A model generated the notes under the pieces. It made no database searches, had not been told where the DNA came from, and worked only from the letters and a program-made list of their open reading frames with translations. Source: Candidatus Shapirobacteria bacterium (GTDB lineage: Bacteria > Patescibacteriota > Microgenomatia > UBA12405). From it: a stretch of 64,000 bases of DNA. This document shows, piece after piece, positions 19,971-36,874 of this stretch; within the stretch, counting starts at the first letter, position 1; each line of letters starts with the position of its first letter. Location of the stretch: positions 285-64,284 of the forward strand of contig JAGOQF010000003.1 of the NCBI GenBank assembly GCA_017991615.1, written 5' to 3'. The translations under genes were made by a program, and so were the position numbers.

Positions 19971-20495
19971 TTAATCAGCATCTGCATAAAAACAATATTT
20001 TTTGCAGTGAAGACAGCGAAAAAGATATCCAGCAATGTAACCACCTATTTTTAAACTTTGTTTGACATCTTCAAAATCACACTCTTCTGGGTAATTTTTT
20101 TTATAATATTCTTCTATTTCTTTTTCTATTCCTAATTCTACGATATCATCCCAAGAAACTTCTCCCAAAAAATCGCAGAAATCGTTACAATGACTTAACC
20201 AATGACTCTCTTGTATTGAATTGAAACCCGGAGTTCGATATAACAATTCATTTTTACTTTCATCACTATCAACTTCACATTCATAATCATAAACAATTGT
20301 AAATTCACCATCGTATTTTTTGGCGGCGAAACCACTAGCAATGCAGTTTGGACAAATATTTTCCAATGTATCCTGACTATGAAAAGGTCCTATGTAGGAG
20401 TAATCTGAATGTTTACCACAAACATCACAAATAATTTTCTTTGATATTATTGATCCAGTTTTTAATGGCGTTAGTGCATTTAATATTTCAGTCAC
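19971..20495 (-). CDS. CbrC-family (UPF0167) protein.
   Basis: ICDVCGKHSDYSYIGPF and CPNCIASG match the CbrC N-terminal zinc-binding pattern. The gene is low-GC relative to its flanks and starts with GTG. Confidence 0.6.
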   Translation of the reverse strand: MTEILNALTPLKTGSIISKKIICDVCGKHSDYSYIGPFHSQDTLENICPNCIASGFAAKKYDGEFTIVYDYECEVDSDESKNELLYRTPGFNSIQESHWLSHCNDFCDFLGEVSWDDIVELGIEKEIEEYYKKNYPEECDFEDVKQSLKIGGYIAGYLFRCLHCKKYCFYADAD

Positions 20496-20596
20496 TTTTC
20501 ATTATTGTTTCTTCTTTTTTTTCTTATATTTTCTCACTTTTATTTATTCTTTTTCACTCTTCTTAATATCATGAAAAGTGAAGATAAGTGATAAAT

Positions 20597-20640
20597 AGTG
20601 AGAAAAAGATACCAAAAGGTATCTAATAAGGTATCTAAAT
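20597..20640. promoter_or_regulatory. Operator-like module: AGTGAGAAAAAG, then palindrome AGATACC-aaaa-GGTATCT, then a direct repeat GGTATCTAA 12 nt later.
   Basis: Seen directly in sequence. AGATACC is at 20607-13. GGTATCTAA is at 20618-26 and 20630-38. The module lies upstream of cbrC-like on the minus strand and downstream of the methyltransferase gene. Confidence 0.5.
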
Positions 20641-20646
20641 TTTATA

Positions 20647-21453
20647 TTATTTTTTATATCCAATATACATTGCATGACCACAAGTATCTATGATTGATGG
20701 ATTTTCTGATGTTTCGTTAATTAAATCAACAACTTTATTAAACATATTCTTATCCTCTATATTATATAGTGAATCTTCTTTTTCATATCCAAATCCACGA
20801 ATTGATCTAATTGTGATTTTTTCAAATCCACTATTACTGAATAAATTTTCTATTTCATTTATTGTTGGATAATATCCTTCTTGGAATCCTTTATCTGATG
20901 AATTATTAAATTTACCAGATTTAAATACTTCGGATAAATTATTTATATCTACTTGTTCAGGATGTCTAAAATATCTATCTACTATTGCAATACTACCAGA
21001 AAGATATGGAATAAAACTTGCAAATATTTTTCCTCCTGGTTTTAATACTCTGCTTATTTCTTTTATACATTGTTCTCTTTCTGATTTTTCAAGCAAGTGA
21101 TATAAAGGTCCAAATAATAATACAACATCAAATTGATTGTTTTCATACATACTAAGATTTGTAGCATTAACTACATCACAAGATATAATGTTTTGATTAT
21201 TTTGTTTCTTAGCTTGATTAATCAAATCTTCGGATAAATCAGCTAAGTATACTTTATAACCTTTATCTGCTAATGGAAATGAATAAACACCTGCTCCACC
21301 ACCTAAATCTAAAATTACTCCGTTTGCTGGTAAATTATTTCCCAATATATTCATTGTCATATCATATTCTAACTTTCCACTATTATCATTTTGCAATCTA
21401 TTCTTTTCATCAAAATTTTTATAATAATTTTTTACTTTATTAAAATCTGTCAT
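20647..21453 (-). CDS. Class I SAM-dependent methyltransferase.
   Basis: VILDLGGGAGVYSFPLA is motif I (GxGxG). An acidic motif II (KVYLADLSEDL) and motif III (VVLLFGPLYHL) follow. The gene is very AT-rich (roughly 28% GC) with a strong SD (AGGAGTG). Confidence 0.8.
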   Translation of the reverse strand: MTDFNKVKNYYKNFDEKNRLQNDNSGKLEYDMTMNILGNNLPANGVILDLGGGAGVYSFPLADKGYKVYLADLSEDLINQAKKQNNQNIISCDVVNATNLSMYENNQFDVVLLFGPLYHLLEKSEREQCIKEISRVLKPGGKIFASFIPYLSGSIAIVDRYFRHPEQVDINNLSEVFKSGKFNNSSDKGFQEGYYPTINEIENLFSNSGFEKITIRSIRGFGYEKEDSLYNIEDKNMFNKVVDLINETSENPSIIDTCGHAMYIGYKK

Positions 21454-21479
21454 ATTATCACTCCTATATTAATTATATC

Positions 21480-21505
21480 AAAAAAAGACCAATTTTGGTC
21501 TTTTT
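21480..21505 (-). terminator. Bidirectional A/U-flanked hairpin AAAAAGACC-aatttt-GGTCTTTTT downstream of the HIT gene.
   Basis: 9-bp stem with A-run and T-run flanks. On the minus strand the stem is followed by T7. Confidence 0.45.
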
Positions 21506-21518
21506 AATCATTTTTCAG

Positions 21519-21564
21519 GGTATCTAAAAGGTATCTAATTCACGATTTTTCACTTTTTCTCACT
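21519..21564. promoter_or_regulatory. Second copy of the operator-like module: GGTATCTAA-aa-GGTATCTAA, then TTTTTCACT and TTTTTCTCACT.
   Basis: GGTATCTAA is at 21519-27 and 21530-38. TTTTTCACT motifs are at 21546-54 and 21554-64. The module is upstream of the methyltransferase gene on the minus strand. Confidence 0.5.
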
Positions 21565-21593
21565 TTGTAATCTTCTAAAACCCTTGATTTTAC

Positions 21594-21692
21594 TTATTTT
21601 CCGCAACACTGCTTATATTTGCGTCCAGAGCCACATGGATCTGAATGATATTTAAATATAGGCAAACTTGTCTCTTTTTTATTATTTTTCAT
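21594..21692 (-). CDS. Unannotated 32-aa ORF encoding a SEC-C zinc-binding motif peptide: MKNNKKETSLPIFKYHSDPCGSGRKYKQCCGK.
   Basis: I translated the minus strand by hand. It is too short for the provided ORF track. DPCGSGRKYKQCCGK matches the SEC-C consensus CPCGSGKKYKxCCG found at the SecA C-terminus and in YecA/YchJ. No obvious SD is present. Confidence 0.4.
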   Translation of the reverse strand: MKNNKKETSLPIFKYHSDPCGSGRKYKQCCGK

Positions 21693-21740
21693 TTTTTATT
21701 AAATTTATAAAATGTACTATTGCTGAGTAATTGTAGCAAA

Positions 21741-22187
21741 TTATAACTGTAAATTTTTTAATAACATTTTCTTCATTTTTTTTAAACCTTTTTCTGTCGG
21801 CTTATATTTTTCATTACACCTGATTTCTTTTTCAATCGCCCAAATTGCTGTTTCCGGTTTTGGGTCAGTTTTATATCTTGGAATCAAATGCCAATGTAAA
21901 TGTGAGTCTGAATTACCCAACAACTCATAATTCAGTTTTTTAGGTTTAAAAGTTTTTATTACCGCTTCAGCCACTTTTGCCATTTCTTCTAAAAATAATT
22001 TTTGTTTATCTCCTAATTTATATAATTCATCAGTATGAATTTTGGAAATAAAAATAGTGTAGCCGTAGAAATATTGATAATCCGCCAACACTACGTATCC
22101 ACTTTTTAATTCTTTTACAAAATAAATATTTTTATTTTGTTTAATTAGTTCGATTCTCTGACAAACTGGACAATTATCGTTAATCAT
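21741..22187 (-). CDS. HIT-family (histidine triad) nucleotide hydrolase/transferase.
   Basis: HLHWHLIPR is the HxHxHxx triad. A CxxC lies near the N-terminus. The gene is AT-rich. Confidence 0.8.
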   Translation of the reverse strand: MINDNCPVCQRIELIKQNKNIYFVKELKSGYVVLADYQYFYGYTIFISKIHTDELYKLGDKQKLFLEEMAKVAEAVIKTFKPKKLNYELLGNSDSHLHWHLIPRYKTDPKPETAIWAIEKEIRCNEKYKPTEKGLKKMKKMLLKNLQL

Positions 22188-22224
22188 AATTAATATTTTA
22201 TCTCTTTATTCAGTATAATAAGCC

Positions 22225-23646
22225 ATGACTAAAAAATTTATCAAACTCAAGTCAGAGGACTTGTCAGAATGGTACAACGACGTTGTTGTCAAATCCGGTT
22301 TGGCTGATTATGCCCCTGTCAAAGGTTGTATGGTTATCCGTCCCTACGGTTACGCTATTTGGGAAAGAATCCATAATTTTATGGATCCTTTTATCAAAGA
22401 AAAAGGTGTTCAAAATGCCTATTTTCCCATTTTTATTCCCGAAAATTTTTTAAAAAAAGAAAAAGAACATGTTGAAGGTTTCGCTCCTGAATTAGCCGTT
22501 GTCACCCATGGTGGTGGGGAAGAGCTCACCGAAAAGTTGGTTATTCGTCCCACTTCGGAAACCATTATGTATGAAATGTACAAAAAATGGACTCAAAGCT
22601 GGCGCGATTTGCCGGTTATGATGAATCAATGGTGCAACGTCGTTCGTTGGGAAAAACGCACTTATCTGTTTTTGCGAACTTCCGAATTTTTGTGGCAGGA
22701 AGGCCATTGCGCTCACACTACCGAATCAGAAAACCAAGACATGGTCAAATGGGCTCTTGATCTTTACAAAAAAACTTATCGTGATTTGTTATCGATTTAC
22801 GGCATCACCGGTGTCAAAAGTGATTCTGAAAAGTTTGCCGGTGCTGGCAAAACTTACACTATCGAAGCACTTATGCCCAACGGCAAGTCGCTTCAAGCCG
22901 CCACTTCTCACGATTTATCCCAAAATTTTTCAAAATCCTTTGACTGGTCGGTCCAAGATCAAAATGGTCAAAAACTTTATCCCTACCAAAACAGTTGGGG
23001 ACTTTCCACTCGCGCCATTGGCAGCTTAATTATGGTTCACGGTGACGACAATGGTTTAGTCTTTCCATCTCAAGTTGCTCCAGTTCAAATTGTTATTATT
23101 CCTATCCCTGGTCACTCCAAAGCCAAAACTCTGGCCGAAAATGTTTTTACCGATCTAAAAACTAAATATCGTTGTCAACTTGACCTTATCGACAATGAAA
23201 CTGCCGGATTTAAGTTTAATCATTGGGAAATGAAAGGAGTCCCTTTGCGAATCGAAATTGGTGACAAAGAAGCTGACAACAATGCTGTAGTTTTATGTCG
23301 TCGTGACAATCTCCAAAAACAAACCGTTTCAGTTTCTGATTTGAATAAAAATATTACTCAAATTTTGGCAGATATTCAAGCCACCCTCTTGAAAAAACAT
23401 CAAGAGTTCACTCAACAAAACACTCATACCACCGATTCTTATGATGAATTCAAAAAAATCATGTCAACCACTCGCGGTTTTGTTTTAGCTCATTGGTGTG
23501 AAAACCCTCAGTGTGAAGCCGAGATTAAACAAGATACCAAAGCCACCACCCGCTGTTTACCTGATGGTCAACCAGAAGAGAAGGGTGTTTGTATTCACTG
23601 CGGTCAACCATCAAAACATCGTTGGTTATTTGCGCAAAGCTACTAA
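22225..23646 (+). CDS. proS: Prolyl-tRNA synthetase, archaeal/eukaryotic-type (class IIa with C-terminal zinc-binding domain).
   Basis: The length (473 aa) and the C-terminal CIHCGQP motif match the archaeal-type architecture, as does the absence of a bacterial-type insertion domain. Class II motifs are present. Confidence 0.9.
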   Translation: MTKKFIKLKSEDLSEWYNDVVVKSGLADYAPVKGCMVIRPYGYAIWERIHNFMDPFIKEKGVQNAYFPIFIPENFLKKEKEHVEGFAPELAVVTHGGGEELTEKLVIRPTSETIMYEMYKKWTQSWRDLPVMMNQWCNVVRWEKRTYLFLRTSEFLWQEGHCAHTTESENQDMVKWALDLYKKTYRDLLSIYGITGVKSDSEKFAGAGKTYTIEALMPNGKSLQAATSHDLSQNFSKSFDWSVQDQNGQKLYPYQNSWGLSTRAIGSLIMVHGDDNGLVFPSQVAPVQIVIIPIPGHSKAKTLAENVFTDLKTKYRCQLDLIDNETAGFKFNHWEMKGVPLRIEIGDKEADNNAVVLCRRDNLQKQTVSVSDLNKNITQILADIQATLLKKHQEFTQQNTHTTDSYDEFKKIMSTTRGFVLAHWCENPQCEAEIKQDTKATTRCLPDGQPEEKGVCIHCGQPSKHRWLFAQSY

Positions 23647-23662
23647 AAAGGTATACTTATTT

Positions 23663-25792
23663 ATGGCTAAACGTGGTCGCAAAAAAAAGAGAATTATTCC
23701 CAGTCTGCGCTTAAAACCAGAAACAGTTCAAACTATCTTTTTTATTTTCTTTCTTATCCTGACTATTTTGACTGTTTTTTCTTTTCTCCAAACTGGTCCA
23801 ATTCCGTCTCGGATTAATCAAATCATTGTTACCTATTTTGGTTTCGGTGCCGTTTTGATTCCTTTTATTCTCTTTTTAGCCGCCTTTTTGTTTGCCAAAA
23901 TCAAAACCCCTCTCAAAGACTTAAACGTTTTTTTGGGTTTTTTGATTATGTTTATTTCCCTTATCAGTCTTTTTAATCATGGTATTGTTGGCACTTTTCT
24001 TTTTGAACAATTAGTTACTTTATTTACTCGGATTCCTACTATTCTTATTTTAATCTTTTGTTTAATCGTTGGCTTTGTCATCATGTTTGATACTTCTGTG
24101 GCTCAAGTAGTCAAATTTTTTGTCACCGTTTTTAACATTATCAAAAAATATGCTGTTGGCAATGCCAAAAAAATTGCCAAAAAAACCAAAGACAAACAAA
24201 AATCAAAGATTTTTCAATCAGAATTGCCACTTGAATCTCAATCCGATTCTAAAAAAGACAAACCTGACCCAAATGTTGTCAATGTTCCACCTGTTTTTAA
24301 ACCCAGCCCCAACATTATCACTCCCACTGCCGCCCTCAGTTCTTCTAGTCAGCAAATTTGGGAATATCCTTCTATCGATATTTTTGACAATTCTCCTGGC
24401 GCTAAAGCCGATAGGGGAGACATTCGTAAAAATGCCCAAACTATCGAACAAACTCTTGATTCATTCGGGATTACTGCTCGAGTTGCCGAAATCAACGATA
24501 GTCCTTCGGTCACTCAATATGCTCTCGAAGTTGCTTTAGGTACCAAATTAGCCAAAATTGTCAGTCTTAGCAACGACTTGGCTATGGCCTTGGCAGCCCC
24601 TGGTGGTATGATCCGGGTTGAAGCCCCCATTCCTGGTCGGGCTCTAGTTGGAATTGAGGTTCCCAACCGTTCTTTAGAAGTGGTTCCTATTAGGCGGATG
24701 CTTGAGTCAGACGCTATGAAAAATGCCAAAAACAAAATTACGGTTCCTCTGGGTTTAGATGTTTCTGGCAACCCCAAGGTGGCTGATATTAGCAAAATGC
24801 CTCACGTTCTTATTGCTGGTCAAACCGGTTCTGGAAAGTCCGTTTGTGTTAATTCTTGGATTAGCAGTATTTTATTCAAAGCTTCTCCTGACGAAGTTAA
24901 AATGATCATGGTCGATCCCAAACGAGTTGAACTTACTCCCTACAATGGCATTCCCCATCTCTTATCGCCGGTTATTGTTGAACCCGACAAAGTTCTCTCC
25001 TCTCTTAAGTGGGCTGTTGGCGAGATGGAGCGCCGTTACAAAACTTTTACTGAAGTCGGCGCCAAAAACATCGAAGCTTACAACAATCTTTCTGGTTTTC
25101 AATCTATGCCTTACATTTTGATTTTTATTGACGAATTAGCTGAAATTATGTTATTTTCTCCCTCCGAAGTTGAAGATAATATTTGTCGCATTGCTCAAAT
25201 GGCTCGGGCTGTTGGTATTCACCTTATCCTCGCCACTCAAAGACCATCTGTTAACATTATTACCGGTCTTATTAAAGCTAATATTCCGACTCGAATTTCC
25301 TTTGCTGTTGCCTCAGTTACTGATTCTCGAGTAATTCTTGATGCTCCTGGTGCCGAAAAACTTCTCGGTCGAGGAGATATGCTTTATTTGCCTCCAGATT
25401 TAGCCAAACCAGTCCGGGTGCAAGGTTGTTTTGTTTCCGACAAAGAAGTCACCAATCTCATCAATCTTCTTAAAAGTCAAAGAAATACCGAATACAACGA
25501 AGAAATATTAAATCAGCCGGTTTCTGTAGGTAAACAAATTAAAAATGCTCCTTCTACCGGTGAGACTCTTGAAGAAAGAGATCCTTTGTTTGATGATGCT
25601 GTTAAATTGGTCCAGGAGCTTGGTAAAGCCTCATCTTCTCTGATGCAACGCCGCCTCAAACTTGGTTATGCCCGTGCCGCTCGGGTTCTTGATCAACTTG
25701 AAAAAGCTGGAATTGTTGGTCCTGCCAGAGGTGCCAAGGCCAGAGATATCCTTATTCCTCACAATACTCCCAGCGACGATACTGCTGAATAA
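23663..25792 (+). CDS. ftsK: DNA translocase FtsK/SpoIIIE.
   Basis: Start trimmed to MAKRGRKKK, just after the proS stop. N-terminal TM helices are followed by a linker. The AAA motor carries GQTGSGKS (Walker A), the Walker B LIFIDELA, and a gamma domain. Confidence 0.85.
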   Translation: MAKRGRKKKRIIPSLRLKPETVQTIFFIFFLILTILTVFSFLQTGPIPSRINQIIVTYFGFGAVLIPFILFLAAFLFAKIKTPLKDLNVFLGFLIMFISLISLFNHGIVGTFLFEQLVTLFTRIPTILILIFCLIVGFVIMFDTSVAQVVKFFVTVFNIIKKYAVGNAKKIAKKTKDKQKSKIFQSELPLESQSDSKKDKPDPNVVNVPPVFKPSPNIITPTAALSSSSQQIWEYPSIDIFDNSPGAKADRGDIRKNAQTIEQTLDSFGITARVAEINDSPSVTQYALEVALGTKLAKIVSLSNDLAMALAAPGGMIRVEAPIPGRALVGIEVPNRSLEVVPIRRMLESDAMKNAKNKITVPLGLDVSGNPKVADISKMPHVLIAGQTGSGKSVCVNSWISSILFKASPDEVKMIMVDPKRVELTPYNGIPHLLSPVIVEPDKVLSSLKWAVGEMERRYKTFTEVGAKNIEAYNNLSGFQSMPYILIFIDELAEIMLFSPSEVEDNICRIAQMARAVGIHLILATQRPSVNIITGLIKANIPTRISFAVASVTDSRVILDAPGAEKLLGRGDMLYLPPDLAKPVRVQGCFVSDKEVTNLINLLKSQRNTEYNEEILNQPVSVGKQIKNAPSTGETLEERDPLFDDAVKLVQELGKASSSLMQRRLKLGYARAARVLDQLEKAGIVGPARGAKARDILIPHNTPSDDTAE

Positions 25793-25798
25793 TTTTTT

Positions 25799-26407
25799 AT
25801 GATTGCTTCTTCTTTACTCAAAAATACTCGTCTCGACAAAGAATGGGAATTGGAAGATATTTCCAAAAAAATCAAAATACCTGTTAAGTACCTTCGGGCT
25901 CTCGAAGATGAACAAATCAATTGTTTTCCTCAGGAACCTTACTGTTCTTTAATCATCAAAGATTATGCTGACTATCTTGGTCTTCAAGGCCAAGATGTTC
26001 TAGCCCTGTTCCGTCGCGATTTTGAACAGAAAAGAAAATCCAAAAATGTCGTCAATACTGGTTTTACTTTTACTCCTAAATTTACTTTTACTGTTTCTAT
26101 TTTTATCATCATTATTTTATTTTCCCTTTATCTAATTTCAGAATACTTTAAATTTCACCAACCCCCCAAACTAAAAGTCAATTGGCCACTTGAGGCAACC
26201 GTCTCCAGTTCTGTTATTGAAATCAGTGGTATTACTGATCCAGAGTCTACTATCAGAATCAACGACGACTTGATTATTGTTGATTCTACCGGTTCTTTTC
26301 AAAAGAAAATTACACTTAATTCCGGTGATAATAATATTATTGTTGAATCTACCTCTCCCAACGGCAAAATTACTACTGAGGAACGAAATATAAATTCTTC
26401 CCTCTAG
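25799..26407 (+). CDS. RodZ-like protein (XRE-type HTH, single TM, C-terminal domain).
   Basis: N-terminal HTH (LLKNTRLDKEWELEDISKKIKIPVKYLRALE). TM segment FTVSIFIIIILFSLYLI. A beta-rich C-terminal domain follows. Confidence 0.45.
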   Translation: MIASSLLKNTRLDKEWELEDISKKIKIPVKYLRALEDEQINCFPQEPYCSLIIKDYADYLGLQGQDVLALFRRDFEQKRKSKNVVNTGFTFTPKFTFTVSIFIIIILFSLYLISEYFKFHQPPKLKVNWPLEATVSSSVIEISGITDPESTIRINDDLIIVDSTGSFQKKITLNSGDNNIIVESTSPNGKITTEERNINSSL

Positions 26408-27047: not shown

Positions 27048-28871
27048 ATGAACGCTCGTCAGCTCAAAGAAAAATTTGTCGACTTTTTTGTTGCCCGTGA
27101 TCATGTTGAAATTCCCTCCAGTAATCTTGTTCCCGAAAATGACCCGACTACTTTATTTATTTCTGCCGGTATGCATCCTTTGGTGCCCTACCTTTTAGGT
27201 CAACCACATCATTTAGGTAAACGGCTTACCAGTGTTCAAAAATGCATTCGTACCGGTGATATCGATGAGGTTGGTGATAAGTTTCATCACACTTTTTTTG
27301 AAATGTTGGGTAATTGGTCTCTGGGTGATTATTTCAAAAAAGACATGATTCCTTGGAGTTTTGAATTCTTAACTAAACATTTGGGTTATCAAGTTGATCA
27401 AATTCATGTCACTTGCTTTGAAGGTGATAAAAATGCTCCCCGCGATACCGAATCTCATGATTTATGGTTAGCTCAAGGTATTTCCAAATCTCATATCCAT
27501 TATTTACCCAAAAAAGATAATTGGTGGGGCCCTGCTGGTGCTACCGGTCCTTGTGGTCCCGATACCGAGATGTTTGTTGATCTTGATGTTAAAGCCGGAC
27601 CAATTGATTTTGTTGACGGTTGCAAATCCGAGCGGATTGTTGAAATTGGTAACGATGTTTTTATGGAATACAATCTGACTGCTTCCGGTAAATACCAACC
27701 TTTATCTCAAAAAAACGTCGACACTGGTTACGGCGTCGAACGTAATATCGCTGTTATCAACGGTTTTACCGATAATTACCTTACCGACATTTGGCAGCCG
27801 ATTATAAAAACTGTCGAAAATATTTGCGGTCAAAAATATGGTCAATCGGATGAAGTTACCCGATCTTTAAGAATTATTGTCGATCATCTCAAAGCCGCTG
27901 TTTTTATTCTTGCCGACGGAGTTGAGCCCAGTAACAAAGAAGCTGGTTATGTTCTTCGCCGTCTTATTCGCCGAGCTATCCGTCGTGGCAAGATGTTGGG
28001 TATCGAAACCAATTTTATTTCTCAAGTAGCCCTGTCAGTTCTTCAAAACCAAGACAATTATGCCGGTATTTATCCTGAACTTAATCTTCACCACGACAAA
28101 ATTTTATCTGTTTTAGATTTTGAAGAAAATAAATTTCGTAAAACTCTCAATCGGGGACTGGCTGAGCTTCAAAAAGATGAATCTAATTTTCGTCAAAACC
28201 ATCCTGATACTAAATCAGTCGACAAAAAATATCTCGGTGATAAGTCTTTTTATTATTACGAAAGTTTTGGTTTTCCATTCGAAATGTTTTATGAAGAATC
28301 AACTCTTGCCAAAGCTTTTCCCAAAGAAGAGGTTTACAAATATTTCCAAAAATCCCAACAAGATCATATCAATCAATCCCGCAACCTTTCTGCCGGTAAA
28401 TTTAAATCTGGTTTAGCCGATCACTCCGCCATTATTGTTAAATATCATACCGCCGCTCATTTGATGCACGCTTCCCTTCGTCGAGTTTTAGGTAACCATA
28501 TTCATCAAGCTGGTTCCAATATTACCGCCGACAGAATTCGTTTTGATTTCACTCACCCTGAAAAGATTACTTCCGATCAAATCCAACAAGTTGAGACCTT
28601 AGTTAATGATCAGATCAAAGCCGCTCTACCAGTAACTCATCAAATTATTCCATTTAATGAGGCCAAATCCCAAGGAGCTCTTTTTCTTGCCGGTCATACC
28701 TACCCGGAAATGGTCACTGTTTATACTGTTGGTAATCCTGATAATTTTTATTCCAAAGAAATTTGTACCGGCCCTCATGTTGACAACACCAATCAACTAA
28801 CCGAATTTAAAATCCTCAAAGAAGAATCCGCCGGCTCTGGCAAACGCCGTCTTTACGCTGTCCTTCGATAA
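27048..28871 (+). CDS. alaS: Alanyl-tRNA synthetase, short form lacking the C-terminal C-Ala domain.
   Basis: Class II AlaRS catalytic core (FTNAGM-like SAGMHPLVP, GDYFK). Editing-domain HxxxH (HTAAHLMHASL) and CTGPHV are present. The protein is 607 aa versus about 870 aa typical. Confidence 0.85.
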   Translation: MNARQLKEKFVDFFVARDHVEIPSSNLVPENDPTTLFISAGMHPLVPYLLGQPHHLGKRLTSVQKCIRTGDIDEVGDKFHHTFFEMLGNWSLGDYFKKDMIPWSFEFLTKHLGYQVDQIHVTCFEGDKNAPRDTESHDLWLAQGISKSHIHYLPKKDNWWGPAGATGPCGPDTEMFVDLDVKAGPIDFVDGCKSERIVEIGNDVFMEYNLTASGKYQPLSQKNVDTGYGVERNIAVINGFTDNYLTDIWQPIIKTVENICGQKYGQSDEVTRSLRIIVDHLKAAVFILADGVEPSNKEAGYVLRRLIRRAIRRGKMLGIETNFISQVALSVLQNQDNYAGIYPELNLHHDKILSVLDFEENKFRKTLNRGLAELQKDESNFRQNHPDTKSVDKKYLGDKSFYYYESFGFPFEMFYEESTLAKAFPKEEVYKYFQKSQQDHINQSRNLSAGKFKSGLADHSAIIVKYHTAAHLMHASLRRVLGNHIHQAGSNITADRIRFDFTHPEKITSDQIQQVETLVNDQIKAALPVTHQIIPFNEAKSQGALFLAGHTYPEMVTVYTVGNPDNFYSKEICTGPHVDNTNQLTEFKILKEESAGSGKRRLYAVLR

Positions 28872-28903: not shown

Positions 28904-31108
28904 ATGGAAGGGAACAGTTTTTGGTTGATATATATTCAAAACGATCAGGTTTCCGTTTCTCTTGTTTCCGCTTTCGACAACAAGTATCGAATTTTAGCCA
29001 CTGGGCCTAATCAAGGCTGGAACATTGATAATCCCGAAACTTTAACTACCGCTATTGATGAATCTTTATCAGCCGCCTCGCTTAACGCTAATATTACCGA
29101 AGAACAGGAACCGGGTTCAGCCGCTATTGTTGTTCCCCCTTTTTGGGTCAGTAACGACAGTAAAATTCTTCCCACCAAAATCAAAATTATCAAAGATGCT
29201 TGCAAAAGTCTTTCACTTACCCCTACTGGCTTTTTAGCCGAAGATGATGCCATTGTTGAAGATGCTAATCAATTAGACGGTTTTCCTGCCAGCTTTATTT
29301 TACTCCATCTTTCCGATAAAGATTTTTATCTCTCTTTAGTTTATCTCGGCCATATCAAAGAGAGAATCAAAAAAAATCTCACTCAAGAATTTACCAGTCA
29401 AGATTTGGAATCAGCCTTGTTAGAAATCAATTCCGAGTCAGCCTTGCCTCCGCAAATCCTTGTTTTTGGTCAGTTTGATGCCCGAATTCTCAGTTCTCTC
29501 AAAAATTATCCTTGGGTTGGCAAAAAAAATATCGAAACTTTTTTACATCTTCCTGAGATTAAGTCTTATGATCAGGATCAGGTCATCGATATTTTCACCC
29601 GAGTCATTTCCAGTCAATTAGATCCTTCCACCTTGTCCAAAACCATCCCCGACACTGATGAGTCCCAACTCTCTTCTCCTGCCGAAAATTCCGAAGTTTC
29701 AAATCCGCCACTTGAGCCAGAAACCGACCCAGATCAGGAAATCACTCCTCCTGCCCAAAAACTGACTCTTATCGAAACTGACCCTCAAGATCTTGGCTTT
29801 AGTTCATCTGAAACTCATCCTACTCCTGTCTTACCCATTATTACTCCTGCTGACATTCCCGCCCAAGTCAACCAAACTCCTGATCCTTTGTCGGTTCCAA
29901 CGCCAACAGATCCCACCCCTAAAAGACCAAAATTTTCCTTCACTTTCTTTAAAAAAATCAAATTACCCCAGTTTAAATTCAATAAAAACTTTCTTTGGTT
30001 AGGCTTGATATTTATTCCTATTTTAGCGGTTTTACCTTTTTTTCTTATCAAAACTAAAATTACTCTTTTTGTTATCCCTTATAAGTTTAATAAATCTCTT
30101 CCAGTTACTCTCAAAGTCGACGCCACTGAAAGCGATATTTCTAATTCCGTTATCCCTATTAACAAAGAAATTTTTGATATCAAAGCTGAAGTTAGTCTCA
30201 AAACCACCGGTCAAAAAACCGTCGGTGATAAATCCCAAGGCGAAATTACTATCTTTAATAAACTTGACAAACCCCAAAGTTTACCAAAAGGTTCCGTTCT
30301 TATTGATTCTGATGGCAAAAAATTTGAGCTTACCACTGCTGTTTCTGTTGCCGCCAGCAGTTCCAATCTTGAAGAAGGAGTTATTAAATTGGGTCAAATC
30401 AAAACTGTCGCCATAGCTTTGGATATCGGTTCAGAATACAATATTGTTGCTGGTTCCCAACTAAAGTTTAAAGATTTCCCCGAAACCGATTTGATCGCCA
30501 AGACAGAATCTGCCTTTTCTGGTGGCAGTCGCCAACAAATCGCCGCTGTCAGCCTTGAGGATAAGACCACCATCCAATCCCGTATCAACGAAGAAATTTC
30601 CAAAAAAGTTGAAGAAAAGATTAACCAAACTACTGGCAGTATCTCTGGTATTATCAAAGAAACCATTCAAACCAAAAAAGATAATTTAGAGCTTAGTCGA
30701 GAAGTCGGTGAAGCTGCTGAAAATCTCACCGCCACCATTACTGCCTCAGTCAGTGTTTTTGTTCTGGAGGATAACATCAAAGATAGTCTTATTCGTCAAT
30801 TTTTAGCCTCTGAAACTGATTTTTCCAACAGTCTTTTTGACTCTAAAGACTATACTTTTTCTCTCAAAGTTAATAAAATTGAAACTAATCAAGCTTCTGG
30901 CAATCTTACCGTCTCCGGTCAATCATTGCCAAAAGTTGATCAGTTAAATCTCAAAAAAGCTCTGACCTTCAAAACTGTCAAAGGTGCTGAAACAGTCATC
31001 AAAAAAATCGTTCCTCGAGCTTATAATTTTAATATTAACACTAAACTGCCCCTTATCTCCTTTACCCCCAATCATATCAATATTGAAGTTAAAACCGAGA
31101 CCAAGTGA
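28904..31108 (+). CDS. Large bitopic membrane protein, hypothetical. It has a cytoplasmic N-domain, a Pro-rich linker, one TM segment and a large extracytoplasmic C-domain.
   Basis: The TM segment LWLGLIFIPILAVLPFFLI lies mid-protein. The PT/PE-rich linker is at residues 250-330. The stop overlaps the sortase start as ATGA. Confidence 0.5.
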   Translation: MEGNSFWLIYIQNDQVSVSLVSAFDNKYRILATGPNQGWNIDNPETLTTAIDESLSAASLNANITEEQEPGSAAIVVPPFWVSNDSKILPTKIKIIKDACKSLSLTPTGFLAEDDAIVEDANQLDGFPASFILLHLSDKDFYLSLVYLGHIKERIKKNLTQEFTSQDLESALLEINSESALPPQILVFGQFDARILSSLKNYPWVGKKNIETFLHLPEIKSYDQDQVIDIFTRVISSQLDPSTLSKTIPDTDESQLSSPAENSEVSNPPLEPETDPDQEITPPAQKLTLIETDPQDLGFSSSETHPTPVLPIITPADIPAQVNQTPDPLSVPTPTDPTPKRPKFSFTFFKKIKLPQFKFNKNFLWLGLIFIPILAVLPFFLIKTKITLFVIPYKFNKSLPVTLKVDATESDISNSVIPINKEIFDIKAEVSLKTTGQKTVGDKSQGEITIFNKLDKPQSLPKGSVLIDSDGKKFELTTAVSVAASSSNLEEGVIKLGQIKTVAIALDIGSEYNIVAGSQLKFKDFPETDLIAKTESAFSGGSRQQIAAVSLEDKTTIQSRINEEISKKVEEKINQTTGSISGIIKETIQTKKDNLELSREVGEAAENLTATITASVSVFVLEDNIKDSLIRQFLASETDFSNSLFDSKDYTFSLKVNKIETNQASGNLTVSGQSLPKVDQLNLKKALTFKTVKGAETVIKKIVPRAYNFNINTKLPLISFTPNHINIEVKTETK

Positions 31109-31824
31109 GTTATATTTATCTTAAAAAAAAGTCCAAAGCCGTCCCTGCTAAAATCAAACGTCGTCGTCTTCTCGCCGCTGGCTTTGTTTTTTTAGGTCTT
31201 ACTTTTTTAAGTCTGGCCGTTTTTCCAATTGTTAAATTCCAACTTTCTTATTCCACCCGCCTCAAACAAATTATTGACCCACTATCAGCCGAATCCTATG
31301 ATCAACCCTCTATTCTAGGTCAATCCGCCACTGACTATACTCAACTATCTAATTGGTTTATTAATTCCCCTGAGCTACCCAATCTAAGTTCCCAAACCAT
31401 TGATACTTCAATTAGCAGTTACTATCTCACCATCCCCAAGCTTAAAATCAATCGAGCTTTAGTTACTTTGGGTAGCATGGATTTGGAAAAAAGTTTAATT
31501 CACTATCCTCAAACGGCTCTTCCAGGGCATTTTGGCAATACCGTTATTTTTGGTCACTCGGTTTTACCTCAATTTTTCAGTCCCAAAAACTATCTCACCA
31601 TCTTTTCCACTCTTTTCAAATTAAATCAAGGTGATGAAATTATTTTAGAGTATGACAAATCTACTTATAAATATATTGTTGAAGAAATGTTTGAAGTCAA
31701 ACCTACCAACCTTTCTGTTTTGGATCAAAGATTTGATGATAAAACCTTAACTCTTATCACTTGTAGCCCTCCTGGCACCTATCTCCGCCGCCTTATAATT
31801 AAAGCCAGTTTGGGAAATAATTAA
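31105..31824 (+). CDS. Sortase-family transpeptidase.
   Basis: N-terminal TM anchor. The catalytic His is in VIFGHSV, the Cys in TLITCSPPG (TLxTC), and the Arg in RRLIIK. Confidence 0.8.
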   Translation: MSYIYLKKKSKAVPAKIKRRRLLAAGFVFLGLTFLSLAVFPIVKFQLSYSTRLKQIIDPLSAESYDQPSILGQSATDYTQLSNWFINSPELPNLSSQTIDTSISSYYLTIPKLKINRALVTLGSMDLEKSLIHYPQTALPGHFGNTVIFGHSVLPQFFSPKNYLTIFSTLFKLNQGDEIILEYDKSTYKYIVEEMFEVKPTNLSVLDQRFDDKTLTLITCSPPGTYLRRLIIKASLGNN

Positions 31825-31826
31825 AA

Positions 31827-32090
31827 CTATTCTTTGGAATATTTCTTATAAAAATTCTCCACCTCTTCTAGATACATAGAAATGTTATCAAACACCGCCG
31901 GAGCTCTGACTGCAAAATTTAATTCACTAGCCATTAGTGTGGCTTGAAATAAATCTGATTTAGGATATTTCTTACCTGCTTCATGAAAAAATCGTCCACT
32001 AAAAGACGAAAACTCATCTAAAGTAATATCTTGATTCTTAAACTCTTTTATTTTTTTAATAAAAATTTTATTTGCCTCTTTTTCTGTCAT
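31827..32090 (-). CDS. Hypothetical small cytoplasmic protein.
   Basis: 87-aa ORF convergent with the sortase gene. No recognisable motif. Confidence 0.35.
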   Translation of the reverse strand: MTEKEANKIFIKKIKEFKNQDITLDEFSSFSGRFFHEAGKKYPKSDLFQATLMASELNFAVRAPAVFDNISMYLEEVENFYKKYSKE

Positions 32091-32338
32091 AATTATTTAT
32101 AACCAAATTTTTAAAATTAGTCATTGGAAGTTTAATTTTTAAAATTATACTTAGTCTCCTTTACTTTATTTTACAAACCCTCTATTTCCATTAACAAGGA
32201 GACTTAATTAGAAGATAAGAAAAGTTCCTTGTCAAAGGGAAAACTCTCCTATATCTACGGGAGAAAGGGGATTTAAGAATTTAATTTTTTATCATTTGTC
32301 ATTCGTAATTAGTAATTAGAAATTATATAATTACTCCT

Positions 32339-32710
32339 ATGAATTCTCTTGCCATTGACTATGGCACTAAAAGAATCGGTATTGCCATTTCTATTCAGGG
32401 AGTCATTCAACCACTGACTACTCTCAAAAATTCACCTCAGTTTTTTGAAAAACTACAACAAATCATCTCTGATTACAAAATTGACCAAATTTATGTCGGT
32501 ATTTCTCAGGGAGCTATTGCCACTCAAACTAAAAAATTTGTCAATCAGCTTCAAAATATGCTAACATTACCCATTAGCACGGTTGAAGAAGCCGTCAGCA
32601 CTGTCGAAGCTGACAACATCTTTACTGCCAATAAAAAGCATCGTAAAGATTATCAAAAAACCATCGATGCTATCGCCGCTGCTGTTATTCTCAAAAGAGT
32701 TATAAGTTAA
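32339..32710 (+). CDS. ruvX: Holliday-junction-resolvase-like / pre-16S rRNA nuclease YqgF (RuvX).
   Basis: LAIDYGTKRIGIAIS is the YqgF N-terminus with the catalytic Asp. Confidence 0.8.
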   Translation: MNSLAIDYGTKRIGIAISIQGVIQPLTTLKNSPQFFEKLQQIISDYKIDQIYVGISQGAIATQTKKFVNQLQNMLTLPISTVEEAVSTVEADNIFTANKKHRKDYQKTIDAIAAAVILKRVIS

Positions 32711-32717
32711 CAAAATT

Positions 32718-32915
32718 ATGATTAAAGATCTTATTGCCCCCATTCAAGCCTGGTTATTATCTCAAAAAAGATGTGTTGGTTGCGGCACTGCTCTTTCGAA
32801 AGGCACCCGTAAACCAGTTCGAGGTCAAATTACTGTCACTTGCCGTTGTGGTCGTATTTTTATTTACGATGAGTCCAAAAAGACTTACCGTCGCGCCCTG
32901 TTTGACGAAATTTAA
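32718..32915 (+). CDS. Small zinc-ribbon protein, hypothetical.
   Basis: CVGCG...CRCGRIF is a four-Cys zinc ribbon. Length is 65 aa. Confidence 0.45.
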   Translation: MIKDLIAPIQAWLLSQKRCVGCGTALSKGTRKPVRGQITVTCRCGRIFIYDESKKTYRRALFDEI

Positions 32916-32920
32916 TCCTG

Positions 32921-33889
32921 ATGAAAAAAATTCTCCTTATTGCCGGTGGCATTGTTCTGGTCTTAATTTTAATTCTCGGATTTTATATCAGCCTAGGTCT
33001 AGCCCCAGTTTCATCTGAAACCAAAACCACTAATTTTGTTATCAAAAAAGGCGAGGGGATTGCTGATGTCGCCCAAAAGCTCCAAGATAACCATCTGATT
33101 AAAAACAAATATTCTTTTATTGCTTATGCCGTGATCACCGGTCAAAACAAAAAAATTCCCTCCGGCACTTTTCGCCTTTCACCCTCATTATCAGTTAAAG
33201 AAATTTTTATCAATTTTGCCAGTGGCGGTATCTCTGATTATTGGCTAAAAATTATCGATGGTTTTCGTGTTGAAGAGATTGCTCCTCTTTTTCCTGAAGG
33301 GTTATCTTTCAGTCAAGCTGATTTTCTTAATCAAGCCAAAACCAAAGAAGGTTCTCTTTTTCCCGACAGTTATCTTATTCCTAAATATTACAACCTTGAC
33401 CAGGTTTTAGATTTTTTCAATCAAAATTTTATTAAAAAAATTTCTCAAGCCAAGTCTGGCAGTCAAACCACTCTTTCAGACGAAGACAATCTAATTTTAG
33501 CCTCTCTTATCGAACGGGAAGGTCGGTCTCTTGAAGCCAAAAAAATGATCGCCGGCATTCTTCTAAACCGATTGCGTCTTAATATGCCTCTTCAAGTTGA
33601 TGCCTCAGTTCAATATGCTCGCGACAGCCAAAGTCAAAATTTAACCAAATATTGGCAACTTGTTAGTCGCGATGAAATCAAACAAATTAATTCTAAATAC
33701 AATACCTATCTTTACCCTCATCTCCCGCCTGGACCTATTTGCAATCCCGGTTATGACTCTATCTATGCCGCTTACCATCCCACTGATTCTGATTATTTTT
33801 ACTACATTACCGGCAATGACCACAAAATGCACTACGCCAAAACTCTAGACGAACACAACCAAAACATTGCCAAATACTTAAAGAAATAA
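32921..33889 (+). CDS. mltG: Endolytic murein transglycosylase MltG (YceG family).
   Basis: N-terminal TM segment and YceG-like domain (FVIKKGEGIADVAQKL, the LASLIEREGRS-like region, NTYLYPHLPPGPICNPG). Confidence 0.8.
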   Translation: MKKILLIAGGIVLVLILILGFYISLGLAPVSSETKTTNFVIKKGEGIADVAQKLQDNHLIKNKYSFIAYAVITGQNKKIPSGTFRLSPSLSVKEIFINFASGGISDYWLKIIDGFRVEEIAPLFPEGLSFSQADFLNQAKTKEGSLFPDSYLIPKYYNLDQVLDFFNQNFIKKISQAKSGSQTTLSDEDNLILASLIEREGRSLEAKKMIAGILLNRLRLNMPLQVDASVQYARDSQSQNLTKYWQLVSRDEIKQINSKYNTYLYPHLPPGPICNPGYDSIYAAYHPTDSDYFYYITGNDHKMHYAKTLDEHNQNIAKYLKK

Positions 33890-34044
33890 ATTTTGTTTTA
33901 AAAATATTTTTAAAACAAAACAAAATTAAAAATAAAAACATTAAACATAAAACCTAGTAAACTTTGTTCAAACAAGTTACTAGTTGATATTGAATAAATT
34001 TATAATATTATCCTGGTAACGCTTACATATTCATAATATAAATT

Positions 34045-34383
34045 GTGAAAATTAGTGATATTCAAAAATGGGAGAGAGATTTTTCCTTAAGAAAAGGTAT
34101 TGCTCAGGATGAGGAAAAATCACTTAAAATAGCCACATTAAAGTTGTCTGAAGAAGTGGGTGAAGTTTGTAAAGCAATCTTAGAAAAAAAATGGGAAGAA
34201 GTTCCTGCTGAAATAACAGATGTGATTGTTTTTGCTTGTAAAATTGCTAATATTGCAGAGGATTTCCATAATACTAAAAAATTAGAAAAAGTCTTAAAGA
34301 AAAAGTTGGAATATAGCGAAACAAGGAAATATAACCCCCAAATTAACAAAATGAATAAACCCCCTAATAAAGATTTCAAATGA
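34045..34383 (+). CDS. MazG-like all-alpha NTP pyrophosphohydrolase domain protein.
   Basis: GTG start. LKLSEEVGEVCKAILEKKWEE...DVIVFACKIANI resembles the MazG/dCTPase EExxE core. The gene is low-GC, and its AGA/ATA codon usage is atypical for this window. Confidence 0.5.
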   Translation: MKISDIQKWERDFSLRKGIAQDEEKSLKIATLKLSEEVGEVCKAILEKKWEEVPAEITDVIVFACKIANIAEDFHNTKKLEKVLKKKLEYSETRKYNPQINKMNKPPNKDFK

Positions 34384-34397
34384 TAAAAAAAGAATTT

Positions 34398-34453
34398 AAA
34401 CTAGTTAAACAAAAAACAAAGTTCTGTTGATGAAAACTTACCCTAACTAGTTT
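34398..34453. terminator. Bidirectional terminator-like inverted repeat AAACTAGTTA...TAACTAGTTT between convergent genes.
   Basis: Perfect 10-bp arms with a 36-nt loop. T-runs follow on both strands. Confidence 0.4.
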
Positions 34454-34467
34454 ATTAATATTTTTAT

Positions 34468-35547
34468 TTAAAACAAACAATTTTTATTAATCATTTCATT
34501 CAGTCTTACCCATCTTTCTTTTTTGATTTTCATCGGCACGTCGTCAGGGTATAGTTTTTCACTCACCGTTCCCGGTCGGGGAGAGTATTTGTTCAAATAA
34601 GCTATCTCAAAGCCAACTTTTTGACAAACATCTACCGTCTCTTCAAATGCCTTATCATCTTCCCCGGGGAAACCGATAATAATATCAGTACTAAATCTAA
34701 CTTCGTTCACTTTAGACTTGATTTTTTTTACCAAATCCAAATATTCTTGTTTGGTATAGTTTCGGTTCATTTTTTGCAAAATCTTATTATCTCCTGATTG
34801 AAACGGTAAGTGAATCAATCGGTCAATATTTTTGTATTTAGCTATAACTTCAATTAAATCATCCGAAAAATCCCAGGGATTATTACTTACAAATGAGACT
34901 TGATCTACTTGTTTTTCTGCCACTTCTGCCAGTAAATTGGGAAACAGACTTTTAAATCTTTTTTTGCCCATCGACACAAAACCACAACCGCTTAAATCCG
35001 ATCCATACGAATTAACATTTTGCCCAATGAGTAAAATTTTTTTATCACCATTTCTAATTGCCTTATCCACATCCGCTAAAATTTCTCCCATTGGCCGAGA
35101 AATCTCTCTCCCTTTAGCCTGAGGCACAATACAATAAGAACACATATTGTTACAACCATAACTGATCGGCACCAATACTACTCCATTAAATTTTTTGATC
35201 GGTTCTGTATTTATGACATATTTATCAAGCGGTTTAAATTCCACTCCCGGAAAATTTTTTTTCGTTTCCATTTTTTTCTTATTATTCTTGTTCATTACTC
35301 CTACCAAACAGCCGGTAACTACCACCTTTTTTTCAAATTTTTGTACGTTTCTTAAAAATCCATAAGCCCGGTTTTCAGCTGATTGTCGGATAACACAGGT
35401 ATTAATCACCACCTCATCAGCTTCTTTCCAGTTTTTAACCTCTTCCCAACCATTTTCCCAATAATACGCTTTAATTCTTTCCGAATCAGACGTATTTTGA
35501 ATACAACCAAAAGTTTTAACAAAAAATTTCACCCTTGATTTTACCAA
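34468..35547 (-). CDS. MiaB/RimO-family radical-SAM methylthiotransferase (short, apparently without the TRAM domain).
   Basis: FVKTFGCIQN (MTTase N-domain). The radical SAM motif is CNNMCSYC (CxxxCxxC). Length is 359 aa. Confidence 0.8.
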   Translation of the reverse strand: MVKSRVKFFVKTFGCIQNTSDSERIKAYYWENGWEEVKNWKEADEVVINTCVIRQSAENRAYGFLRNVQKFEKKVVVTGCLVGVMNKNNKKKMETKKNFPGVEFKPLDKYVINTEPIKKFNGVVLVPISYGCNNMCSYCIVPQAKGREISRPMGEILADVDKAIRNGDKKILLIGQNVNSYGSDLSGCGFVSMGKKRFKSLFPNLLAEVAEKQVDQVSFVSNNPWDFSDDLIEVIAKYKNIDRLIHLPFQSGDNKILQKMNRNYTKQEYLDLVKKIKSKVNEVRFSTDIIIGFPGEDDKAFEETVDVCQKVGFEIAYLNKYSPRPGTVSEKLYPDDVPMKIKKERWVRLNEMINKNCLF

Positions 35548-35553
35548 ATCAGC

Positions 35554-36030
35554 TTATTTGATTATTTTCTTGGCCGCCATCAATAATCCCGATCCTAAAG
35601 TTGACAAAACTATCGTTGGCATTATCACTCCCACTGTCGGTAAGGTAGTTGCCCCCGCTTCGGCGTTCACCGCTTCCCAGTTTACATTTTCTGCTCCAGT
35701 CGTTAGAGTGAAATTTATTGTCGATCCATTGTTGGAAATAATTACTGTATGATCACCTCCAGCCAACGCCCCAGCTGCATAAGACCAATTATTACTATCA
35801 TTACTAATTGCCGTTCCTTCGTTATCGTCAACACTCACTGTCACCGTACTACCTGCTGGCGCTTCGCCATTAAAAACTACGTTTGTTCCAGAATACCACC
35901 AGTGTGAAATCTGCCGTCCATCGGTATTTACCGGCCCGATTGATTTCAAATTAAAACCGCTGGCCAAAACTTTACTATTAAACATCACCATCAACCCTAA
36001 AAAACACAAAAGCATCAACACTCTTTTCAT
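35554..36030 (-). CDS. Secreted surface protein with a signal peptide and a C-terminal cell-wall-sorting-signal-like tail (LPTVG, hydrophobic stretch, KKIIK).
   Basis: The signal peptide is MKRVLMLLCFLGLMVMFNSKVLASG. The C-terminus reads TTLPTVGVIMPTIVLSTLGSGLLMAAKKIIK. A sortase gene lies 3.7 kb away. Confidence 0.5.
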   Translation of the reverse strand: MKRVLMLLCFLGLMVMFNSKVLASGFNLKSIGPVNTDGRQISHWWYSGTNVVFNGEAPAGSTVTVSVDDNEGTAISNDSNNWSYAAGALAGGDHTVIISNNGSTINFTLTTGAENVNWEAVNAEAGATTLPTVGVIMPTIVLSTLGSGLLMAAKKIIK

Positions 36031-36097: not shown

Positions 36098-36874
36098 ATG
36101 GACGACATCAAAAATAAATCAATTGATCAACAAGATCAAGATAATTATCAAGAAATTCTTGATAAATATGCCGCTTCTGTCAAACCTGAAACCGATATTA
36201 CTCCTCCTTCATCACCAGAAACAGTCTCTTCAGAAACTATTACTACTACTACCGCTTCTGCCTCCAATGAAACCGACCCTATTATAAACGATAACCTCAC
36301 TCCTCCTCCTGAAACTGAAGTCACTCCTGTCGCTCCAGTTACTCCTCCATCTCTATCCCCAGAACCCGAATCCAAAACCAAAACCCCCGAAGAAATCAAA
36401 GCTGAAATTGACAGAATTTTAGTCGATGATCCCAATCAAACATCTTCCTCTAAATCGGAACCCATTACTTCACCTTCCGTTTCCTCGTCCAGCAAATTTC
36501 TAAAAACTCTTTTTATTATTTCTCTAATTATTTTTCTAACCATAATTGGTTTATTGGTCTATTTTGCATTTTTTAACAAACCCATCAAAAATAATTCTCC
36601 AGACGAGGGTATAGTTCCTACCTCCGTTCCTGAAGTTACTTGTGAACTTAACGGAGTCGAATATAAACTAGGTGAATCTTTTCCTTCCGCCGACGGTTGT
36701 AATACTTGTGTTTGTCAATCTCCTGATGTCATCACTTGCACTGAAATGGCCTGTGACACCAATTCTACCCCTGAGGTTGAAATTACCACTGTCACTCCTG
36801 CTCCCTCAGCCACCAAATCTGGAATCAAAACCATTACTCCCACCACTTCTACCTCGCCAACTTTAGGTCCCTAG
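36098..36874 (+). CDS. Bitopic membrane protein with a PT/S-rich N-terminal region and an extracytoplasmic Cys-rich domain resembling a VWC-like module.
   Basis: TM segment LFIISLIIFLTIIGLLVYFAFF. The Cys pattern is CELNGVEYKLGESFPSADGCNTCVCQSPDVITCTEMAC (CxxNGxxYxxGExFxxxDGCNxCxC...C...C). Confidence 0.5.
   Translation: MDDIKNKSIDQQDQDNYQEILDKYAASVKPETDITPPSSPETVSSETITTTTASASNETDPIINDNLTPPPETEVTPVAPVTPPSLSPEPESKTKTPEEIKAEIDRILVDDPNQTSSSKSEPITSPSVSSSSKFLKTLFIISLIIFLTIIGLLVYFAFFNKPIKNNSPDEGIVPTSVPEVTCELNGVEYKLGESFPSADGCNTCVCQSPDVITCTEMACDTNSTPEVEITTVTPAPSATKSGIKTITPTTSTSPTLGP

Follow-up and report, generated by a model that had tools for sequence, protein, structure and literature searches.

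In a 64-kb stretch of DNA from the Candidatus Shapirobacteria contig JAGOQF010000003.1 (64,000 nucleotides (nt); hereafter the window), the gene of a sortase directly follows that of a 734-amino-acid (aa) membrane protein, here called BIG, and a secreted 158-aa protein of the same neighbourhood, p158, carries a putative sorting signal of variant type. The sortase is a protein of a known kind, while the variant sorting signal and the architecture of the neighbouring BIG family appear, from their sequences, to be new. According to the explanation given here, to which we assign about an even chance, the housekeeping sortase of this lineage would have p158 as its substrate and BIG as its docking scaffold; the cleavage of p158, the target of its attachment and the contact between BIG and the sortase are the parts of this explanation that we infer.

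Sortases are among the few envelope enzymes that are near-universal in Microgenomates (PMC6744442), and they are present in individual genomes of candidate phyla radiation (CPR) bacteria (PMC7143001, PMC4736985). In the literature searched, no motif, substrate or partner was defined for any CPR sortase. A candidate substrate is now offered by p158, and the locus provides further handles in the variant motif LP[T/A][V/A]G, in a conserved cytoplasmic peptide of the sortase and in the large BIG family encoded immediately upstream.

The sortase and the putative sorting signal of p158

The 239-aa product of the sortase gene (31105-31824, + strand) scored 91.9 bits with PF04203 (cut-off 26.6) and 60.3 bits with TIGR01076 (cut-off 39.35). 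The canonical His, Cys and Arg residues claimed in the sequence-only reading were confirmed. His151 (in FGHS, 31555-31557), Cys220 (in TLITC, 31762-31764) and Arg229 (31789-31791), all on the + strand, aligned with C. perfringens SrtD (4d70) and were at least 95% conserved in 73 orthologues. The class D enzyme SrtD was also the closest solved structure (E 4e-13). A protein of 100% identity in metagenome-assembled genomes (MAGs) at NCBI is annotated as 'sortase', and the 120 matches listed for the sortase showed identities of 59% or more. Membership in the sortase superfamily is therefore solid on sequence grounds. With the class-specific NCBIfam models, scores and cut-offs were 57.8 and 160 bits for class C, 52.1 and 160 for class E, 50.6 and 165 for class D, 23.6 and 166 for class F and 20.3 and 158 for class GN. 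The protein stayed below the cut-off of every named class (A-F, GN) and was left unclassified, because no class-specific model was reached.

The protein is the housekeeping sortase of the lineage, predicted to be a membrane-anchored Cys transpeptidase. Its membrane anchor (residues 22-43, 31168-31233, + strand) is the hydrophobic run LLAAGFVFLGLTFLSLAVFPIV behind RRR. In front of it lies a cytoplasmic N-terminal peptide, MSYIYLKK (31105-31128, + strand), of the pattern M-x-Y-x-Y-x-K, in which M, Y3, Y5 and K7 were at least 95% conserved in the 73 orthologues. The peptide was kept in distant lineages as MALYRYVKK, MALYAYYKS and TLYSYVRR (Y-x-Y-[LV]-K), and the stretch from there to the membrane anchor varied.

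The candidate substrate p158 is encoded on the minus strand (35554-36030). It consists of a signal peptide (residues 1-24), an immunoglobulin (Ig)-like beta-sandwich (25-112), a short helix, the pentapeptide LPTVG (residues 130-134; 35629-35643, minus strand), a membrane helix and a terminal KKIIK, with 19 hydrophobic residues between the pentapeptide and the basic tail. It was the sole open reading frame (ORF) in the window that combined a signal peptide with a tail of pentapeptide, hydrophobic stretch and basic residues, in agreement with the sequence-only reading. Among 1436 ORFs from about 1.35 Mb of related loci, which represent the same neighbourhood and not whole genomes, such a tail was found in the p158 family alone. 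The 10 kb beyond each end of the window on the source contig contained housekeeping genes only and no sorting tail.

A search of 5.8 billion proteins yielded 123 homologues of p158, all between 145 and 195 aa long and many of them annotated with PF19077 (Big_13). Motifs were counted in the 120 homologues listed, and the family alignment comprised 121 sequences. All 120 had a pentapeptide at the same place, described by the family motif [L/M/I]P[T/A][V/A]G. LPTVG occurred 53 times, LPAAG 40, LPTAG 16, LPAVG 3, LPATG 2 and MPTVG 2 times, and LPDAG, LPSAG, MPTAG and IPAAG were found once each. LPTVG had been called a non-canonical motif, and the alignment bears this out: position 3 of the family is T or A, and position 4 was Val or Ala in 119 of the 121 sequences and Thr in only 2. 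Pro131, Gly134 and Pro138, the last lying four residues past the Gly, were present in 121/121 sequences, and Leu130 in 117/121. The 6-7 residues upstream of the motif showed low information content as well as insertions and deletions, and the information peaked at L-P-x-x-G. The motif looks like a sorting signal because it stands out as conserved behind a linker that varies, and the non-canonical pentapeptide is, as judged from the alignment, under strong selection.

The AlphaFold2 (AF2) model of p158 had a mean predicted local distance difference test score (pLDDT) of 79. The sandwich was modelled with confidence (about 90 for residues 26-110), and helices were formed by the signal peptide and by residues 135-156, the latter being the membrane helix. 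The motif fell into a flexible segment (residues 127-133, pLDDT below 50) directly before the membrane helix. Foldseek matches were to generic Ig-like folds only, i.e. glucodextranase domain B, the S-layer protein SbsC and adhesins.

We read the signal of p158 as one of LPXTG type that in this lineage has come to carry Val or Ala at position 4. From the sequence patterns, it is likely that the sortase cleaves p158 at this variant motif and anchors it. The protein would be exported by Sec and kept in the membrane by its C-terminal helix and KKIIK tail. The sortase would then cut the exposed LP[T/A][V/A]G, presumably after its fourth residue and before the Gly, and the single Ig-like domain would be passed to the wall precursor. 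If position 4 is indeed Val or Ala, the enzyme would also be attractive as a ligation tool of orthogonal specificity.

Several observations weigh against p158 as a substrate. To our knowledge, Thr at position 4 is needed by nearly all characterised sortases, and the tail of the window protein matched neither the LPXTG model (TIGR01167) nor PEP-CTERM nor any other curated sorting-domain model. The p158 gene lies 3.7 kb from the sortase gene on the opposite strand, with five housekeeping genes between them, and distant lineages with BIG and the sortase lack it at this locus. Where it is present, its synteny is conserved to the same degree as that of all other genes of the block. The C-terminus of p158 might instead be a permanent membrane anchor, with LPxxG...P serving as a juxtamembrane motif for structure or interaction that is never cleaved. 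This alternative, which we consider rather unlikely, would account for the Val or Ala at position 4 and for the missing match to sorting-domain models; furthermore, the helix itself appears to be constrained, as it contains the second invariant Pro and a conserved Gly146. It fits less well with the textbook layout of the tail and with a motif that is the sharpest conservation peak past the variable linker. Also, the rare LPATG members nearly meet the LPXTG model: one orthologue with LPATG had a tail that reached 15.5 bits with TIGR01167 LPXTG_anchor (cut-off 15.9) and touched three other LPXTG-anchor models. Among the related loci, a sortase was found in every genome carrying p158, which likewise argues for cleavage.

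The N-terminal strand GFNLKSIG, which follows the signal-peptide cleavage site, was among the most conserved parts of p158, and its Lys28 was near-invariant. This strand and the single Ig-like domain would be consistent with a minimal pilin, where the sortase joins the carboxyl group of LP[TA][VA] to Lys28 (in SGFNLKSIG) of the next subunit, yielding a fibre of single Ig domains with the BIG ectodomain as its possible base. Unusual filaments of Ig fold, the Pam pili, are in fact known from CPR bacteria (bioRxiv 10.64898/2026.03.03.709456), but these are assembled by donor-strand exchange and not by a sortase. p158 has neither a pilin motif of the YPKN type nor an E-box, the neighbourhood has one sortase only and no genes for tip or base pilins, and conservation of a first beta-strand is to be expected anyway. 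A pilin is thus a very improbable identity for p158. Pam pili themselves were rejected as an explanation of p158, since the Pam pilins described have two domains, depend on chaperones as well as donor-strand exchange and are encoded in a different operon.

The membrane protein BIG and its junction with the sortase gene

BIG (28904-31108, + strand) belongs to a widespread and unannotated family that is conserved across the Microgenomates. A word-index search returned 243 relatives, all of them 'hypothetical' and without Pfam domains. A profile search yielded 6655 clusters (50% identity) at E<=1e-3 and 1450 at E<=1e-30; the best 150 of the 6655 were almost all full length. No match to the BIG sequence was obtained in profile searches of Pfam, NCBIfam and PDB. 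The Pfam models of FtsA and PilM gave no match, and Baseplate_J (PF04865) gave none even at E<=10.

Structure prediction, which had been proposed for this protein, yielded an AF2 model with a mean pLDDT of 78.5 (mostly 85-93 in both domains), with an actin-fold N-terminal domain and an ectodomain resembling baseplate wedge proteins. The bitopic nature claimed for the protein was in agreement with the model, which showed one transmembrane helix (residues 361-380, 29984-30043, + strand). The strongly basic stretch KRPKFSFTFFKKIKLPQFKFNKN precedes this helix and indicates an N-in, C-out topology. Residues 1-244 (28904-29635, + strand) formed an actin-type two-lobed fold like that of FtsA and PilM. 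The top Foldseek matches of this cytoplasmic domain were complexes with partner peptides, namely PilM:PilN1-12 (5eou) and FtsA:FtsN1-29 (7q6i). By inspection only, no DxG or DxGGG phosphate-binding motif was seen among the invariant alignment columns, which points to a non-catalytic scaffold domain. Residues 245-360 were modelled as a disordered, Pro-rich cytoplasmic linker, which is unconserved apart from the motif E-x-x-P-x-D-L-G-F (residues 291-299, 29774-29800, + strand), where E291, G298 and F299 were invariant in the alignment. The pLDDT of the linker was below 50 except for a local rise with a short helix at 294-297. On one metagenomic contig (L090, positions 2-1767), BIG was represented by two ORFs that share 4 nt in the linker region, one comprising the N-terminal domain and the other a 392-aa piece with the membrane helix and the ectodomain. 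The gene may truly be split, or the assembly may contain a frameshift.

The ectodomain (residues 384-734, 30053-31105, + strand) showed the baseplate J / gp47 wedge fold. Foldseek matched it to baseplate wedge proteins at E of about 1e-7, and PHROG 1369 ('baseplate protein') matched at E 3e-5 over 47 residues. These matches could be taken as the remnant of a prophage or of a contractile injection system. Sheath, tube, spike and other tail genes were not found in the gene block, and every lineage sampled has BIG as a single-copy core gene located between alaS and ruvX; in addition, the domain lies outside the cytoplasm and forms one polypeptide with a membrane helix and an actin-fold domain. 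Such an origin is so improbable that we regard it as ruled out by gene context, and the baseplate-like domain has, in a block without tail genes, probably been domesticated. From the model, BIG would be a trans-membrane scaffold with a degenerate FtsA/PilM-like actin fold inside and a domesticated baseplate-J-like domain outside. This domain architecture is new.

The stop of BIG and the start of the sortase overlap by 4 nt in different frames (acc aag tga / GTG AGT TAT). The overlap had been given as ATGA and taken as translational coupling of the two genes. The 4-nt overlap of the ORFs is real, while its sequence is GTGA and the sortase starts with GTG. A GTG start is credible because the N-terminus that it encodes is conserved in the orthologues, and among the 73 orthologues GTG was the start codon in 49 and ATG in 24. 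Read-through of the TGA, or an alternative code, that would fuse BIG and the sortase was rejected: the frames differ, and the aligned stop codon of BIG orthologues is TAA or TAG.

Synteny was followed in 89 related loci. Of 78 loci from species-representative genomes, 73 included downstream DNA. In all 73, the sortase gene was located directly downstream of BIG. A 4-nt overlap (GTGA) was found in 39 loci, a 1-nt overlap in 5, a gap of 0-6 nt in 28 and a gap of 118 nt in one, so that the spacing ranged from -4 to +6 nt in 72/73 loci. Six look-ups of distant BIG homologues, which were 24-49% identical to each other, gave the order alaS-BIG-sortase-ruvX-mltG in 6/6.

The preferred mechanism, which we put forward tentatively and by analogy, is that BIG docks the sortase. 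It is preferred because the N-terminal domain of BIG resembles proteins that clamp a peptide at the cytoplasmic N-terminus of a bitopic partner. BIG would grip the YxYxK peptide of the sortase as PilM grips PilN and FtsA grips FtsN, and would so place anchoring beside the machinery of wall synthesis or division. The wider form of this idea seems unlikely to hold in full; in it, BIG is the sortase dock throughout the Microgenomates, YxYxK is clamped, the ectodomain organises the acceptor side and the signal is a Thr-less LP[T/A][V/A]G-x3-P. If true, this wider form would amount to a new, spatially controlled mode of anchoring surface proteins in CPR bacteria, and a family with over 6000 clusters would gain its first assigned role.

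BIG and the sortase might equally be mere neighbours in an ancient housekeeping block, with BIG serving by itself, as a membrane tether of the FtsA/PilM kind, in division, elongation or the organisation of the envelope and the overlap reflecting genome compaction. We regard this as a serious possibility, with a chance somewhat below even. The block order, (PNPase-Lon-RNaseJ-)ftsK-rodZ-like-tm90-p165-alaS-BIG-srt-ruvX-znr-mltG-(miaB-p158-p258-)rpoB, was kept in essentially all 89 loci, even where BIG was only 24-30% identical. The adjacency of BIG and the sortase was not better conserved than that of alaS and BIG or of the sortase and ruvX, and the latter pair showed the same 4-nt overlap in about 22 sister loci. 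In distant lineages, the gap between BIG and the sortase widened to 64-123 nt. Overlaps of 4 nt and 1 nt were common among the gene calls of the same contig, and the nearby genes for FtsK, a RodZ-like protein and MltG are envelope and division genes. The linker motif of BIG offers an alternative ligand for its N-terminal domain, which also weighs against docking of the sortase peptide. Adjacency and overlap are not proof of a partnership, since the whole block of 14 genes is collinear and other junctions are equally tight; they show a very old compact housekeeping operon and not a specific two-gene module.

Two points speak against mere neighbourhood. The cluster alaS-ruvX-mltG, as in alaS-yrrK-yrrL of B. 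subtilis, is widespread in bacteria without BIG and sortase genes, and these two genes therefore look as if they had been inserted into it together. Also, the cytoplasmic peptide of the sortase needs a cytoplasmic reader, and the fold of BIG is of the right kind. As to the surface-display system outlined by the sequence-only reading, the sortase is genuine and p158 is a credible substrate, while coupling has to be dropped as an argument for partnership. A display 'system' remains conjectural, because coupling is uninformative and p158 is distant, on the opposite strand and absent in distant lineages.

The Cys-rich neighbour and the surroundings of the locus

Divergent from p158 and separated from it by 67 nt is the gene of a bitopic 258-aa protein, p258 (36098-36874, + strand), which is followed by rpoB. 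A VWC-like ectodomain had been ascribed to p258. A six-Cys module is indeed present (Cys182, 201, 204, 206, 214 and 219; Cys-rich part 36641-36775), although the Pfam gathering scores were narrowly missed, with 27.1 bits against 27.9 for Pacifastin_I (E 3.5e-6) and 23.5 against 27.6 for VWC (E 7e-5). TILa reached 18.2 bits (cut-off 27). The motif CxLNGxxYxxGESFxSADGCNTCxC was kept in about 25 loci. Across 45 loci, the p258 family kept the N-terminal cytoplasmic region and the membrane helix, and the ectodomain was swapped; the other ectodomains were unrelated, 150-300 aa long and ended in ...STFKF. p258 may belong to the sortase system.

The GC content of the window was about 38%, and the + strand carried nearly all genes. 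Close homologues of its proteins were from MAGs named Candidatus Shapirobacteria or Woesebacteria (Microgenomates, CPR/Patescibacteria). Many public MAG records with this clearly patescibacterial gene block were titled 'uncultured Gammaproteobacteria', and the same block also occurred under the titles 'Candidatus Methanoperedens' (one) and 'Bdellovibrionales' (one), indicating that organism names in such titles are unreliable.

Upstream of BIG, the block comprises ftsK (23498-25792), a gene for a RodZ-like protein with HTH_25, a membrane helix and a Glucodextran_B Ig-like ectodomain (25799-26407; E 4.5e-12), two genes for small membrane proteins and alaS (27048-28871). The ectodomain of the RodZ-like protein is of the fold class that the p158 domain resembles in Foldseek; a BLASTP comparison of p158 with this ectodomain was not significant (E 0.078). 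The alanyl-tRNA synthetase (AlaRS) has 607 aa (585-595 aa in related loci) with catalytic and tRNA_SAD domains, apparently without the C-terminal extension usual in bacterial AlaRS.

Downstream of the sortase, an insert of 515 nt (31825-32338) in front of ruvX houses an orphan ORF of 87 aa (31827-32090, minus strand), a homologue of which was found in 0 related loci. The spacing between sortase and ruvX was -4 to +27 nt in most sister genomes, and about 13 loci had inserts of 440-880 nt, so that this gap looks like a variable insertion site. The orphan ORF is followed in order by ruvX, a Zn-ribbon gene, mltG/YceG and a MazG-like gene, and a MiaB-like radical-SAM (S-adenosylmethionine) gene lies on the minus strand between the MazG-like gene and p158.

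Elsewhere in the window, a low-GC island (19971-22187; GC 0.27 compared with about 0.38) carries genes for a UPF0167 protein, a SAM methyltransferase and a HIT-family protein, all on the minus strand of a region whose other genes are all on the + strand, and was probably acquired horizontally. It adjoins a region of about 1.3 kb (22200-23490) without a convincing ORF. A pair resembling a ribbon-helix-helix antitoxin and a YafQ/RelE toxin (weak Pfam matches) was observed at 571-1076, directly upstream of a dUTPase gene. GC skew was persistently negative on the gene-bearing strand and strongest, at -0.22 to -0.25, between 28 and 38 kb, a pattern reminiscent of the disparity in strand composition that was reported for another genome of the Microgenomates (PMC7143001). 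No tRNA genes and no Rfam families at gathering score were found in the window, and a scan for promoters and terminators gave counts not above those of shuffled controls.

Comparison with known systems

The sortase shares its fold family, the His-Cys-Arg triad, TLxTC and an N-terminal anchor with the housekeeping sortases of Gram-positive bacteria (classes A, D and E). It differs from them in scoring far below the class cut-offs, in its conserved cytoplasmic YxYxK and in its CPR host. p158 likewise has the signal peptide, pentapeptide, hydrophobic helix and basic tail of LPXTG substrates, but its motif has Val or Ala in place of Thr at position 4 and an invariant Pro four residues past the Gly. 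One sortase with few conserved targets nearby is also found in the class GN 'marine' pair of a sortase and a single target (TIGR03784); unlike that pair, p158 is 3.7 kb off on the other strand and not universal, and the GN model gave about 20 bits against 158. The Pam pili of CPR bacteria, which need no sortase, are a separate system (bioRxiv 10.64898/2026.03.03.709456).

With regard to BIG, a conserved membrane protein encoded beside a housekeeping sortase is also known in SafA. SafA is reported to be a small membrane protein that is genetically linked to the actinobacterial housekeeping SrtA, binds it and controls its membrane homeostasis (PMC9282373). It acts via an FPW motif, whereas BIG has 734 aa and two large domains and shows no sequence relation to it; the binding of SafA to SrtA is reported, whereas an interaction of BIG with the sortase is hypothetical. 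Compared with the pairs PilM-PilN and FtsA-FtsN, BIG spans the membrane itself and has a minimal actin fold of about 240 aa. It differs from PilM and FtsA further in showing no visible ATP-binding motifs and no Pfam match, and in being encoded outside a pilus or dcw cluster. Its ectodomain has the wedge fold of baseplate J, gp47 and T4 gp6 wedge proteins and of diffocin TRI-2, but is extracytoplasmic, tethered to the membrane and encoded in a housekeeping block without tail genes. The combination in one protein of an FtsA/PilM-like domain inside and a baseplate-J-like domain outside is unprecedented.

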